Shown: positions 1,788-6,993 of the stretch, piece by piece
Numbering within the stretch: position 1 is the stretch's first letter
Layout: every line of letters starts with the position of its first letter
Source of the DNA: a virus
Taxonomy: Duplodnaviria > Heunggongvirae > Uroviricota > Caudoviricetes
IMG/VR virus record: IMGVR_UViG_2671180366_000008
Strand: one strand, 5' to 3'
Length of the DNA: 7,364 nucleotides
Made by a program: the position numbers and the translations under genes
The notes under the pieces: model-generated
What the model saw: only the letters and a program-made list of their open reading frames with translations
The model's database searches: none
What the model was told of the DNA's origin: nothing

Positions 1788-2531
1788 ATGACACAGACTG
1801 AATCAGCGATTCTGGCGCATGCCCGGCGGTGTGCGCCTGCGGAGTCGTGCGGCTTCGTGATAAGCACGCCGGAGGGGGAGTGGTATATCCCTTGTGTGAA
1901 TATTTCTGCAGAGCCGGAGGCGTATTTTCGTATCGCACCGGAAGACTGGCTGCGGGCAGAGATGCAGGGGGAGATTGTGGCACTGGTCCACAGTCATCCC
2001 GGTGGGCTGCCCTGGCTGAGCGAGGCTGACCGGCGGCTGCAGATAAAAAGCGCACTGCCCTGGTGGCTGGTCTGCCGGGGTGACATTCACAAATTCCGCT
2101 GTGTGCCACATCTGACAGGACGGCGCTTTGAGCACGGGGTGACGGACTGTTACACGCTGTTCCGGGATGCTTATCATCTGGCGGGGACTGAAATGCCGGA
2201 TTTTCATCGCGAGGATGACTGGTGGCGCAACGGCCAGAACCTTTACCTGGACAATATGGCGGTCACCGGCTTTTACCGGGTGCCCCTGTCCTCTGCACAG
2301 GCGGGCGATATTCTGCTGTGCTGCTTTGGTGCTTCGGTACCGAACCATGCCGCCATTTACTGCGGCAACGGTGAGCTGCTTCACCATCTGCCTGAACAAC
2401 TGAGTAAACGGGAGAGGTATTCCGAAAAATGGCAACGACGAACGCATTCAGTCTGGCGTCACCGCCACTGGCACGCATCTGCCTTCACGGGGATTTACAA
2501 CGATTTGGCCGCCGCCTCAGCCTGTATGTGA
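1788..2531 (+). CDS. K: Tail tip assembly protein gpK with JAMM/MPN metalloprotease and NlpC/P60-like domains (247 aa from ATG 1788; alternative internal start at ATG 1962)
   Basis: The frame is open from the ATG at 1788 (MTQTESAILAHARRCAPAESCGFV...), 11 nt after the L stop, and runs to the stop ending at 2531. It contains a JAMM motif, HSHPGGLPWLSEAD (H-x-H-x7-S-x2-D), with an upstream Glu in ...PEGEWY. A downstream Cys (VTDCYTLFRD) and His (ELLHHLPE) pair is consistent with an NlpC/P60-type fold. The supplied ORF 1527..2531 is the same frame extended back into L. The start is uncertain because no strong SD precedes 1788. Confidence 0.85.
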   Translation: MTQTESAILAHARRCAPAESCGFVISTPEGEWYIPCVNISAEPEAYFRIAPEDWLRAEMQGEIVALVHSHPGGLPWLSEADRRLQIKSALPWWLVCRGDIHKFRCVPHLTGRRFEHGVTDCYTLFRDAYHLAGTEMPDFHREDDWWRNGQNLYLDNMAVTGFYRVPLSSAQAGDILLCCFGASVPNHAAIYCGNGELLHHLPEQLSKRERYSEKWQRRTHSVWRHRHWHASAFTGIYNDLAAASACM

Positions 2532-3109
2532 ACACGGCAGCGGAAGCCATTCGCGCCCTGTCGATGCAGATGCCGGGCTTTCGCCGTCAGATGAACGAAG
2601 GCTGGTACCAGATACGTATTGCCGGTTATGACACGGCACCGGAGGCGGTGTACGCCCGTCTTCACGAACAGCTGGGTGAGGGAACGGTCATCCACATTGT
2701 GCCGCGACTGGCCGGGGCCGGAAAGGGTGGACTGCAGATTGTGCTGGGGGCGGCAGCCATCGTGGGCTCTTTCTTCACTGCCGGGGCATCAATGGCGTTA
2801 TGGGGTTCAGCCCTGGCAGCCGGTGGTTTTTCTGCCACCACGATGCTGTTTTCACTTGGAGCCAGCATGATTCTGGGCGGTGTGGCCCAGATGCTGGCCC
2901 CGAAGGCAAAAACACCGGATTACCGCGCAACGGATAACGGCAGACAGAACACGTACTTTTCCTCACTGGATAACATGATTGCCCAGGGGAACCCGATGCC
3001 GGTGCCTTACGGGGAAATGCTGGTTGGCTCCCGCCGTATATCCCAGGACATCAGCACCCGTGATGAAGGCGGGGGCGGAAAGGTCGTGGTTATCGGGCGG
3101 CAGGGGTAA
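2429..3109 (+). CDS. I: Tail tip assembly protein gpI (226 aa)
   Basis: 226-aa ORF (MATTNAFSLASPPLARICLHGDLQRFGRRL...) starting 103 nt inside the 3' end of K in a different frame. A purine-rich SD-like GGGAGAGG lies about 11 nt upstream of the ATG. The C-terminal half is hydrophobic and Gly/Ala-rich (GAAAIVGSFFTAGASMALWGSALAAGGF...), as in lambda gpI. The K/I overlap length matches my recollection of the lambda arrangement. Confidence 0.85.
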   Translation: MATTNAFSLASPPLARICLHGDLQRFGRRLSLYVNTAAEAIRALSMQMPGFRRQMNEGWYQIRIAGYDTAPEAVYARLHEQLGEGTVIHIVPRLAGAGKGGLQIVLGAAAIVGSFFTAGASMALWGSALAAGGFSATTMLFSLGASMILGGVAQMLAPKAKTPDYRATDNGRQNTYFSSLDNMIAQGNPMPVPYGEMLVGSRRISQDISTRDEGGGGKVVVIGRQG

Positions 3110-3155
3110 AAAGAATAAAAAAATCCCGCAGTGATCGCGGACAGGAACTGCGGGA
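3110..3155 (-). terminator. Putative rho-independent terminator oriented for minus-strand transcription
   Basis: An 8-bp inverted repeat, TCCCGCAG (3124-3131) and CTGCGGGA (3148-3155), flanks a 16-nt loop. It is immediately preceded on the + strand by the A-tract AAAGAATAAAAAAA (3110-3123), which reads as a hairpin followed by a T-tract on the minus strand. It sits directly after the I stop codon. Confidence 0.5.
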
Positions 3156-3319
3156 GAGTTACGAAGATTAAGTGTAAGGAATTATTCTTATATCACGACA
3201 AAAAAATTAACGCAGAGAAATTATACGCGCCACAGTCAGTTTGTGAAAATGTGAAGATATTCAGAATTTTTATGCCATTACCGGTTTTAACCAACAGGAT
3301 TATCGGTGGGCATGAAAGA

Positions 3320-3358
3320 AAACCCCGGTATCTGCTGATACCGGGGTTTCTCTTTAGC
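3320..3358. terminator. Perfect 13-bp stem-loop with T-rich flanks on both strands (bidirectional terminator-like hairpin)
   Basis: AAACCCCGGTATC (3320-3332), loop TGCT, GATACCGGGGTTT (3337-3349): a perfect inverted repeat with a GC-rich stem base. It is followed on the + strand by CTCTTT and preceded by GAAAGAA, which gives a TTCTTTC tract after the hairpin on the minus strand. Confidence 0.55.
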
Positions 3359-3452
3359 ATGGCAGAAATGTGTTTCATGCTTTTCGGGCGAAGGATATCC
3401 GACTTCTGTACGGAATGGCAAGTGGCGGTTAATTTATTCAGGGGAAGGCTGT

Positions 3453-6400
3453 ATGGGAAAAGGTGGCGGTAAGGCACACACGCCTCGTGAGGCGAAGGAT
3501 AATCTCAAATCCACGCAGATGATGAGCGTGATTGATGCGATTGGTGAGGGACCGATAGAAGGTCCGGTGAAGGGACTGCAGAGTATCCTGGTGAACAAAA
3601 CCCCGCTGACGGACACGGACGGTAATCCCGTGATACACGGTGTGACGGCGGTCTGGCGCGCCGGGGAGCAGGAGCAGACACCACCGGAAGGCTTTGAGTC
3701 CTCCGGTGCTGAAACCGGACTGGGCGTGGAAGTGACGAAGGCAAAACCGGTGACGCGCACCATTACGTCCGCGAACATTGACCGCCTGCGGGTTACCTTC
3801 GGGGTGCAGTCACTGGTGCAGACCACGTCAAAGGGCGACCGTAATCCTTCCTCTGTCCGGATTCTGATTCAGTTACAGCGTAATGGCCGCTGGGTGACGG
3901 AAAAGGATGTCACCATTAACGGCAAGACCACCTCGCAGTTCCTGGCCTCGGTGATTCTGGATAACCTGCCGCCGCGCCCGTTCAATATCCGGATGCGCAG
4001 GATGACGCCGGACAGCACCACAGACCAGCTGCAGAACAAAACGCTCTGGTCGTCATACACCGAAATCATCGATGTGAAACAGTGCTACCCGAACACGGCC
4101 ATTGTGGGGCTGCAGGTGGATGCGGAGCAGTTCGGCGGCCAGCAGATGACGGTGAACTACCATATCCGCGGTCGCATCATCCAGGTGCCGTCAAACTATG
4201 ACCCGGAAAAACGCACGTACAGTGGTATCTGGGACGGCAGTCTGAAACCGGCATACAGCAACAACCCGGCCTGGTGCCTGTGGGACATGCTGACTCACCC
4301 GCGCTACGGCATGGGAAAACGTCTGGGGGCGGCGGATGTGGACAAGTGGGCGCTGTATGCCATCGGGCAGTACTGCGACCAGACGGTCCCGGATGGTTTC
4401 GGGGGGACCGAGCCGCGGATGACCTTTAATGCGTACCTGGCACAACAGCGTAAGGCGTGGGACGTTCTCAGTGATTTCTGCTCTGCGATGCGCTGTATGC
4501 CGGTATGGAACGGCCAGACGCTGACGTTCGTTCAGGACCGTCCGTCGGATGTGGTGTGGCCGTACACCAACAGCGATGTGGTGGTGGATGATAACGGCGT
4601 GGGTTTCCGCTACAGCTTCAGTGCCCTGAAGGACCGGCACACGGCAGTGGAGGTGAATTACACCGACCCGCAGAACGGCTGGCAGACCTCCACGGAACTG
4701 GTGGAAGACCCGGAAGCCATACTGCGCTACGGACGCAACCTGCTGAAGATGGACGCGTTCGGCTGTACCAGCCGCGGTCAGGCCCACCGTGCCGGGCTGT
4801 GGGTGATAAAGACCGAACTGCTGGAAACGCAGACGGTGGATTTCACGCTCGGGTCACAGGGGCTGCGTCACACACCCGGTGACATCATTGAAATCTGTGA
4901 TAACGACTATGCCGGGACCATGACCGGCGGACGTGTCCTGTCCATCGATGCCGCCAGCCGTACCCTGACGCTGGACCGGGAGGTGACACTGCCGGAGACC
5001 GGCACGGCCACTGTTAATCTGATTAACGGCAGCGGTAAGCCGGCGAGCGTGGTCATCACCGCACACCCCGCGCCTGACCGGATACAGGTCAGCACCCTGC
5101 CGGATGGTGTGGAGGCATACGGGGTGTGGGGACTCTCCCTGCCGTCACTGCGCCGTCGCCTGTTCCGCTGTGTCTCCGTCCGGGAAAACACGGACGGCAC
5201 CTTTGCCATCACGGCGGTGCAGCACGTACCGGAAAAAGAAGCCATCGTGGATAACGGTGCCCGCTTTGAGCCGCAGTCAGGTTCCCTGAACAGCGTCATC
5301 CCACCGGCAGTGCAGCACCTGACGGTGGAGGTGAGCGCAGCTGACGGACAGTATCTGGCGCAGGCGAAATGGGACACGCCGCGGGTGGTGAAGGGTGTGC
5401 GCTTCAGTCTGCGCCTGACCAGTGGTAAGGGAACGGATGCCAGACTGGTGACCACCGCCATCACCGCAGACACGGAGCACCGTTTCAGCGGCCTGCCGTT
5501 CGGGGAATACACCCTGACGGTGCGGGCGATAAACAGCTATGGCCAGCAGGGTGAACCTGCCACCACCACATTCCGGATTGCCGCACCGGCAGCACCGTCG
5601 CGGATTGAGCTGACGCCGGGCTATTTTCAGATAACGGCGGTCCCGCGTCTTGCGGTGTATGACCCGACGGTACAGTTTGAGTTCTGGTTCTCGGAAAAGC
5701 GGATTGCGGATATCAGGCAGGTTGAAACCGCAGCCCGCTATCTTGGCTCGGCGCTGTACTGGATAGCTGCCAGTATCAATATCAAACCGGGCCATGATTA
5801 TTATTTTTACATCCGCAGTGTGAACACCGTTGGCAAATCGGCATTTGTGGAGGCTGTTGGCCAGCCGAGTGATGATGCATCCGGCTATCTGAATTTTTTC
5901 AAAGGAGAGATAGGGAAAACCCATCTGGCTCAGGAGTTGTGGACGCAGATTGATAACGGTCAGCTTGCGCCTGACCTGGCTGAAATCAGGACGTCCATTA
6001 CGGATGTCAGCAATGAAATCACGCAGACCGTCAATAAAAAACTGGAAAATCAGAGTGCGGCAATCCAGCAGATACAGAAGGTTCAGGTTGATACAAATAA
6101 TAATCTGAACAGCATGTGGGCTGTGAAGCTGCAGCAGATGCAGGACGGACGCCTTTATATTGCGGGTATCGGTGCCGGTATTGAGAATACGCCAGCAGGA
6201 ATGCAGAGTCAGGTGCTGCTGGCGGCAGACAGGATTGCGATGATTAATCCTGCGAATGGCAACACAAAGCCGATGTTTGTTGGTCAGGGCGATCAGATAT
6301 TCATGAACGAAGTGTTCCTGAAATACCTGACGGCTCCCACCATTACCAGCGGCGGTAATCCTCCGGCATTTTCCCTGACACCGGACGGAAAACTGACCGC

Positions 6401-6926
6401 TAAAAATGCAGATATCAGTGGCAGTGTGAATGCGAACGCCGGGACGCTCAACAATGTCACAATTAATGAGAACTGTCAGATTAAGGGGAAACTGTCAGCC
6501 AACCAGATTGAAGGCGATATAGTCAAAACAGTGGGTAAGGCTTTCCCCCGTGACTCCCGTGCACCGGAGCGTTGGCCATCAGGAACCATTACCGTCAGGG
6601 TTTATGACGATCAGCCGTTTAACCGGCAGATTGTTATTCCGGCGGTGGCTTTCAGCGGTGCCAGACATGAGCGGGAGAACAGCGATACTTATTCGTCATG
6701 CCGCCTGATAGTACGGAAAAACGGTGCTGAAATTTATAACCGTACCGCGCTGGATAATACGCTGATTTACAGTGGTGTTATTGATATGCCTGCTGGTCGC
6801 GGCCACATGACGCTGGAGTTTTCTGTATCAGCATGGTGGGTAAATGGCTGGTATCCCACAGCAAGTATCAGCGATTTGCTGGTTGTTGTGATGAAGAAAG
6901 CCACCGCAGGCATCAGTATCAGCTGA
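3453..6926 (+). CDS. J: Central tail fibre / host specificity protein gpJ (1157 aa)
   Basis: Uninterrupted 1157-aa ORF with the SD-like GGGGAAGG 5-6 nt upstream of the ATG. The N-terminus ([22 protein letters not shown]...) and conserved blocks ([32 protein letters not shown]; [16 protein letters not shown]; [21 protein letters not shown]; [38 protein letters not shown]) are those I recall for lambda-family J proteins. Lambda J is 1132 aa from memory. Confidence 0.96.
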
Positions 6927-6944
6927 ATTTTATAACCCATATAC

Positions 6945-6972
6945 GGGCGCCAGAAATGGCGCCTTTTTTATT
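6945..6972 (+). terminator. Rho-independent terminator downstream of J
   Basis: The stem GGCGCCA (6946-6952), loop GAAA and TGGCGCC (6957-6963) are followed directly by TTTTTTATT (6964-6972), 20 nt after the J stop. Confidence 0.75.
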
Positions 6973-6993
6973 GCAGAAAAGCGAGAGGTAATT

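Follow-up and report, generated by a model that had tools for sequence, protein, structure and literature searches.

PasB of EPEC O127:H6 E2348/69 is an 83-nt small RNA (sRNA) encoded on the minus strand of NC_011601.1 (1466343->1466261), in prophage PP6 between E2348C_1436 and E2348C_1437 (PMC8550237, table S6). It accumulates in lysogens, was detected by Northern blot and RNA-seq and has Hfq-dependent stability (Pearl Mizrahi et al. 2021, PMC8550237), with log2 fold changes of -6.8 and -2.4 in table S2 of that study, whose tables are taken here as the delta-hfq comparison. The same study reported 37 RIL-seq interactions of PasB on Hfq, with core and accessory mRNAs, as well as a higher PasB level under 'non-activating' conditions (PMC8550237), and took as its sRNA criterion a 3' stem-loop with a U-tract of 4 or more behind it (PMC8550237, table S6). 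A 2026 preprint placed the PasB seed just upstream of the terminator and reported that the synteny flanking PasB is conserved between phages and chromosomes and that PasB was acquired separately from PasA, PasC and PasD (Zhu, Shabalina & Storz 2026, bioRxiv 10.64898/2026.05.13.724894). In EHEC Sakai, EcOnc22, EcOnc23 and EcOnc24 were assigned to prophages Sp15 (Stx1), Sp14 and Sp11, respectively, as RNAs of ~85 nt by Northern blot that are destabilised in delta-hfq (Tree et al. 2014, PMC4104026, Table S2). A moron, in the sense attributed to Juhala 2000, is an autonomous promoter-gene-terminator unit inserted between genes that are neighbours in related phages.

We compared these systems with a lambdoid prophage tail-tip region from the IMG/VR database (record IMGVR_UViG_2671180366_000008), a stretch of 7,364 nt that was analysed as a whole and is referred to below as the window. 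Its genes all lie on the plus strand and comprise the 3' end of the tape-measure gene followed by M, L, K, I and J, the last two of which frame the locus under study:

2528-3109, plus strand: tail assembly gene I, with the start at 2528 as in the CFT073 annotation (longest in-frame open reading frame, 2429-3109) and the stop codon TAA at 3107-3109
3453-6926, plus strand: tail tip / host specificity gene J, a context gene

A 343-bp non-coding island separates I from J in the window. The island is 240 bp long in E2348/69, where PasB lies between tail assembly gene I and gpJ, antisense to both, and the I-J gap of lambda measures 60 bp. A hairpin with a U-tract at the I end of the island is very probably the Rho-independent terminator of an sRNA gene of the PasB/EcOnc22 family, a reverse-oriented and self-contained moron between I and J with the following elements:

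3220-3247, minus strand: sigma-70 promoter, with the -35 box TTCACA at 3247-3242, a 16-nt spacer, the -10 box TATAAT at 3225-3220 and the start at about 3213-3211
3212->3117, minus strand: predicted primary transcript of the PasB family, ~96 nt, from a full-length covariance-model match
3163-3180, minus strand: conserved internal core UCCUUACACUUAAUCUUC, from an alignment of 31 distinct variants among the matches listed
3125-3154, minus strand: terminator hairpin, with the 5' arm CCCGCAGU at 3154-3147, a 14-nt loop at 3146-3133 and the 3' arm ACUGCGGG at 3132-3125
3117-3123, minus strand: U7 tract, predicted 3' end of the RNA, ending 8 nt short of the I stop codon

The first-pass annotation of this DNA had described a hairpin followed by a T-tract at 3110-3155, in minus orientation and adjoining the stop codon of I, and direct reading bore out both the element and its coordinates. 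On the plus strand the letters read AAAAAAAT at 3117-3124, CCCGCAGT at 3125-3132 and ACTGCGGG at 3147-3154, which gives an 8-bp stem with G-C pairs at six of eight positions and a single A between stem and U7; beyond the U7 a U-rich stretch, AUUCUUUUU, reaches as far as 3108 and takes in part of the I stop codon. Folding of the 46-nt segment gave -15.5 kcal/mol, against a shuffle mean of -6.8 (z = -4.0), and none of 200 shuffles equalled it. The same hairpin is contained in the fold of the full-length transcript. A consensus pattern scan also listed the site as a minus-strand terminator, which is weak alone (9 sites versus 6.6 expected). A stricter test, which required a perfect stem of 7 bp or more with no fewer than 4 GC pairs and 6 or more T among 8 positions, was passed by three elements of the window, the 3125-3154 hairpin, 3322-3347 and 6946-6963, compared with 0.035 expected per simulated window. 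Overall, the element has the attributes of an intrinsic terminator: a G+C-rich stem, then a U-run, and a promoter ~95 nt upstream on the same strand.

Conservation of the terminator was assessed by scanning IMG/VR with a terminator word, which recovered at least 120 loci, with 31-34 distinct variants among the matches listed. The 3' arm and the U-tract are invariant in 31 distinct variants among these matches, an invariance that arises by construction because the variants were gathered with a pattern containing both. The 7-bp core of the 5' arm, CCCGCAG, lies outside the search word and is invariant too, while the loop varies in length and sequence among the variants listed. No compensatory changes were found in the stem, which is invariant among the 31 variants listed; given this invariance and the collection of variants through the 3' arm, covariation is neutral on the structure.

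A hairpin can also form in plus-strand RNA, and this one stands directly after the I stop codon, where it could be a terminator or attenuator following I, or a 3' stabilising or processing stem of the late mRNA, with the minus-strand reading incidental. We regard such a role as highly improbable. Because the plus strand after the hairpin, AGAGTTACG, carries no T-tract, the hairpin is unidirectional and reads as a terminator on the minus strand only; the U/T-run sits on the minus side and is invariant in the variants listed, and a separate strong hairpin with a plus-strand T-run is already present at 3317-3357. A minus-strand promoter lies at sRNA distance, and homologous RNAs were detected on the antisense strand.

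That promoter, TTCACA-16-TATAAT, is of a strong, constitutive type, matches the consensus at 11 of 12 positions and is the sole such site in the window (expected, 0.025 per simulated window), and the E2348/69, ASU11 and PPompW alleles have the same hexamers and spacing. Promoter, ~96-nt non-coding body and terminator thus follow one another on one strand in the correct order, an arrangement of promoter then terminator that occurred in 0 of 400 simulated windows, and a chance origin of the unit is excluded. The suggestion that a short leftward unit, antisense to the late tail operon, ends at the hairpin is therefore upheld, with the promoter at 3247-3220 and the terminator joined by the ~96-nt transcript. 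Its origin had been assigned either to the island or to the 5' end of J; the island holds, and J does not. A strong bidirectional hairpin at 3317-3357 stands between the promoter and J. Lying inside the I-J spacer, the RNA is antisense only to the polycistronic late transcript and to no coding sequence.

The island also has the properties of a moron, with a promoter and a terminator of its own within 343 bp and no counterpart at the I-J junction of lambda. Canonical lambda had been said to transcribe nothing in this direction here, which agrees with its short I-J gap, where a covariance-model search for the family gave zero matches. An Rfam scan of the whole window at E <= 1 returned no match in the island; its sole match was a chance snoRNA-like one inside J. 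The sRNA unit has no notable open reading frame (ORF), and the island ORFs had no PHROG match. Two protein-coding candidates, a 66-aa ORF from the ASU11 annotation and a 94-aa minus-strand ORF, were discarded, both being without a PHROG match. The 66-aa 'hypothetical protein' of ASU11 (L002 1679-1879, equivalent to window 3272 to about 3472, plus strand) reaches over the island and the J start and spans the bidirectional hairpin; it is probably a spurious call, and the 240-bp E2348/69-type island does not contain its region. Genome annotations, both PGAP and phage, are empty at the sRNA site, with a hypothetical ORF nearby in one phage record.

The identity of the RNA was examined with a covariance model, R1, whose 12 distinct alleles excluded the window type. 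R1 matched the window at 3212->3117 on the minus strand along the full length of the model (positions 1-97 of 97; 64.5 bits, E = 3.7e-12). The rest of the window gave no score above 8 bits. The model also recovered the loci of E2348/69, Sakai Sp12, Sp15, CFT073 and an E. albertii contig, and none in lambda. Family members share their position, in the I-J island and on the strand opposite the tail operon, across E2348/69 PP6, CFT073 and Sakai Sp11, Sp12, Sp14 and Sp15. The published Northern probe for PasB, AATCCCGCAGTGATCGCGGAGCT (PMC8550237, table S6), matches the window at 3122-3144, with its first 20 bases exact (3122-3141). Measured against the sRNA criterion of the PasB study, the window allele shows an 8-bp 3' stem-loop followed by U7.

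The window sRNA and PasB thus have in common the I-J site, the antisense orientation, the TTCACA-16-TATAAT promoter, the terminator 3' arm, the U7, the probe site and a similar length, and identity reaches 65 of 89 aligned columns (73%) over the gene but ~64-66% over the non-terminator body. They differ in the loop (11 nt in PasB versus 14 nt in the window) and in the stem, which is one pair longer in the window, and the E2348/69 island carries another hairpin on the J side. In the alignment of the two loci, the PasB 3' end, derived from RNA-seq coverage, corresponds to window 3117 and its annotated 5' end to 3200. The latter falls 21 nt past the -10 box and 13-14 nt downstream of the predicted start, so either the ~96-nt primary RNA is trimmed to ~83 nt or one of the 5'-end estimates is off. 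The stretch between the two estimates (window 3200-3212; L004 3144-3158) reads CGUUA(A/G)U followed by a U-run.

The EcOnc RNAs of Sakai appear, from sequence comparison, to belong to the same family. Their published coordinates refer to NC_002695.1, and the CRAC peaks of all three fall on the PasB-like body once shifted to NC_002695.2. The version shift near 1.94 Mb is +137 to +146 nt as calibrated on AgvB1, for which the Rfam match is at 1941920-1941981 (NC_002695.2) and the published peak at 1941783-1941835. The EcOnc probe, GGGAGAGAACGATGAAGATTAACTGATGAGTTA, has as its reverse complement GTTAATCTTCATCGTTCTCTCCC of the Sp15 gene, exact over 23 nt and abutting the terminator stem. On the strength of the probe match and the calibrated coordinates, we treat EcOnc22-24 and PasB as one family, a link absent from both the PasB study (PMC8550237, table S6, which gives no EHEC homologue) and the 2026 preprint (10.64898/2026.05.13.724894). 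The Sakai loci are L130 838-927 (Sp15), L131 (Sp14) and L132 (Sp11). They resemble the window in the I-J island, the strand relative to the tail operon, the stem CCCGCAG/CUGCGGG with U7 and the core AACUCC.U..AAUCUUC, and differ in the loop sequence (CGCUAACU), a weaker -35 box (TCCGGC at the equivalent position) and a shorter 5' part.

Two other assignments in Sakai were considered and rejected. Read without the shift in NC_002695.2, the EcOnc22-24 coordinates would point to the hairpin next to J, which the version shift and the Northern probe rule out. EcOnc10, EcOnc11 and EcOnc12 lie near endopeptidase (Rz) and DNase genes, away from I-J.

Several further prophage RNAs are built along similar lines. 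AgvB/AsxR, PasA/PasC and PasD/STnc100 are likewise short, with their own promoter and an intrinsic terminator at moron positions, and they are Hfq-binding RNAs made in the lysogen, with host mRNAs or sRNAs as targets. Unlike the window sRNA, they are found near Q/PR', lysis genes or an esterase gene, outside the tail operon, and they share no sequence similarity with it. The Rfam models of AgvB, AsxR and STnc100 had no match in the window, yet they do match Sakai Sp10. Identity with the anti-sRNAs AgvB/AsxR was accordingly ruled out, those RNAs adjoining PR' on its downstream side and their Rfam models being without a window match.

Within the RNA, the features conserved among the variants listed are the promoter, the first transcribed bases CUGCGUUA, the U-run, the core motifs, the stem and the U-tract, the remaining body and the loop being variable. 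The core UCCUUACACUUAAUCUUC contains an anti-Shine-Dalgarno-like UCCUU and AAUCUUC and is partly unpaired in the partition function, and (C/U)UCC(U/A)U and (A/G)AUCUU are kept in every allele listed while their surroundings differ. We regard 3163-3180 as a candidate seed region. UCCUU and AUCUUC are the only short motifs that a seed comparison found in common between the window and PasB. In addition to the U7 tail, a further U7 run is present near the 5' end (3206-3200); the segment just upstream of the hairpin, CUUCGUAACUCU, is only moderately U-rich.

These features suggest how the locus might work. Host RNA polymerase would start at the 3247-3220 promoter, transcribe ~96 nt leftward and stop at the U7 (3123-3117), 8 nt before antisense entry into I. 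By analogy with the homologues, the terminator hairpin and the 3' oligo-U tail may double as an Hfq-binding module, through which Hfq would stabilise the RNA, and the window sRNA is presumably Hfq-dependent. As homologues suggest, the conserved single-stranded core that precedes the terminator (UCCUU...AAUCUUC) would then let the RNA pair in trans, in a lysogen, with mRNAs of the host and of the accessory genome. Because the bodies are only ~64-66% identical, PasB targets are not transferable to the window allele, whose body, and hence seed and target set, probably differs from that of published PasB.

A short antisense RNA facing a phage operon could instead act in cis. Lambda OOP, a 77-nt antisense RNA transcribed from a promoter of its own (pO) up to an intrinsic terminator, covers the 3' end of cII and works in cis via RNase III. 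The window RNA resembles it as a short constitutive phage transcript opposite a major operon that ends at a hairpin and U-tract. In a comparable arrangement, the main role of the window RNA would be pairing with the I-J part of the late mRNA in lytic growth, where RNase III cleavage or transcriptional interference would tune J or delay induction, as OOP does on cII, and the terminator would merely bound the antisense RNA. The unit does converge on the late operon, is fully complementary to its I-J spacer and is always found at the single I-J position of tail operons, with PasB synteny conserved in phages and chromosomes (Zhu et al., bioRxiv 10.64898/2026.05.13.724894). We nevertheless consider a main role in cis unlikely. 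No coding sequence or ribosome binding site falls within the RNA, the J start being 240 nt away and the I end 8 nt, whereas OOP overlaps a gene, and lambda itself has no I-J counterpart of the window sRNA. The homologue PasB has many trans partners on Hfq, the 37 RIL-seq interactions involving core and accessory mRNAs. Pairing of the sRNA with the translation initiation regions of M, L, K, I and J did not exceed shuffled controls (z of -1.6 to +1.5), and thus none of the five showed significant pairing. Finally, the body is swapped between alleles with identical flanks, which would be unexpected for a cis regulator, though each allele is still complementary to its own locus. As an addition to action in trans, the CFT073-type allele might also act in cis on the late I-J transcript.

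The swapping is clearest in two phage-borne alleles. Over 3248-3452, which reaches from the promoter up to J, ASU11 (L002) and PPompW (L003) match the window at 205 of 205 positions, but identity drops to only 66% across the RNA body (3212-3155) and to 70% across the hairpin. This sharp break between flank and body indicates that the RNA body acts as an exchangeable cassette between fixed ends; as far as sequence can tell, those ends appear to be the conserved promoter on one side and the terminator's 3' arm on the other. The matches listed fell into several allele classes: the window/CFT073 type, the E2348/69 type, its C27A variant, a shorter type, the Sp15 type and apparent recombinants (L068). 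The C27A variant of the E2348/69 type corresponds to 'PasB-2' of the 2026 preprint (10.64898/2026.05.13.724894), and the window/CFT073 type was the commonest among the IMG/VR matches listed (32 of 124). More tentatively, and with less than even confidence, the CFT073-type may be a functionally distinct sRNA, with another seed and regulon in extraintestinal pathogenic E. coli, and the I-J site a hotspot of cassette exchange, where sRNA 'heads' would pass from one lambdoid prophage to another between a promoter and a terminator/Hfq module that both stay fixed.

We then determined how widely the family is distributed. Searched as a 156-nt promoter-plus-gene segment, it occurred in 1,841 of 5,426 complete E. 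coli genomes, and a single genome could hold as many as 9 copies, a number reached in O157:H7. The window allele was found at >=99% identity in 631 of the 5,426, including CFT073, S88, CE10, ATCC 25922 and clone D, and the CFT073 copy of the sRNA allele, on the minus strand of NC_004431.1 at about 1364243->1364148, is identical to the window. Outside E. coli, a window-type allele occurs on E. albertii NBRC 107761 contig NZ_BBMY01000220.1 (L125 33-128; 64.6 bits). An exact-match promoter scan of GTDB species representatives found E. albertii only, which agrees with a family restricted to Escherichia.

This distribution also bears on whether the window copy could be a decayed or silent allele, a diverged pasB remnant whose hairpin is a relic. 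Its identity to PasB of 73% over the gene and ~65% over the body would fit such decay, which we judge very unlikely all the same. The promoter is intact at 11 of 12 positions, with the hexamers of the expressed E2348/69 gene, and the stem is intact and one pair longer, followed by an intact U7. At least 99% conservation in 631 genomes, the rank of commonest IMG/VR variant among the matches listed, the occurrence in E. albertii and the retained core motifs all argue against a relic. We conclude that the window copy is a divergent, widespread and ExPEC-associated allele, hitherto undescribed, within a known sRNA family.

Its absence from earlier surveys can be traced to how PasB was searched for. 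The 2026 preprint (10.64898/2026.05.13.724894) used an 83-nt E2348/69 query with a word size of 28 and a query coverage above 75%. Repeating this search with megablast returned 956 genomes, each at >=90% identity, and did not retrieve the window allele. Because the longest exact word it shares with PasB is 25 nt, the window allele falls outside the described PasB set, as does the Sp15 type. A literature search found no paper describing an sRNA at I-J in CFT073-type prophages, and the terminator sequence was likewise without a match there.

The island and its surroundings contain additional elements, the most prominent of which separates the sRNA promoter from J:

3317-3357, both strands: 12-bp perfect hairpin ACCCCGGUAUC/GAUACCGGGGU, with an A-run on one side and a U-run on the other

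This hairpin was missed by the simple scan, but it is strongly stable (z = -5.2 on the plus and -5.7 on the minus strand), passed the strict terminator test on both strands and looks like a bidirectional intrinsic terminator. On the plus strand, it would stop non-antiterminated late-operon transcription before J, and its minus-strand activity would keep antisense transcripts leaving J from reaching the sRNA promoter. Different, non-homologous hairpins with a T-run on the operon strand lie just upstream of J in lambda and in E2348/69-type and Sp15-type islands: in lambda it reads AAACCGCCTGCGGGCGGTTTTGTCATTT (L134 765-790), and the others are at about 3190-3230 of L004 (E2348/69) and about 740-775 of L130 (Sakai Sp15). 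Because lambda and the other islands carry their own hairpins there, the presence of a hairpin before J looks ancestral to these tail operons and unconnected with the sRNA cassette, which would be the insertion. A weak promoter-like sequence on the minus strand at 3392-3421 (TTGCCA-18-TATCCT, 9 of 12, a pattern match alone) precedes the 3317-3357 hairpin by ~70 nt and could drive another short antisense RNA beside the start of J. At the far end of J, a strong plus-strand terminator, GGGCGCCAGAAATGGCGCC then TTTTTTTATT, is found at 6945-6974, 19 nt past the J stop (6926), at the boundary with a lom-like gene.

Together, these results place an sRNA of this family in a prophage tail operon of about one-third of complete E. 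coli genomes. The window allele represents an unannotated non-coding gene in 631 of them, and the family distribution has been underestimated ~two-fold because this allele misses the criteria of the published PasB survey. Treating EcOnc22-24 of EHEC and PasB of EPEC as one family merges two separate experimental records. Current understanding is not overturned; rather, the known class of prophage-encoded Hfq-dependent sRNAs is extended.
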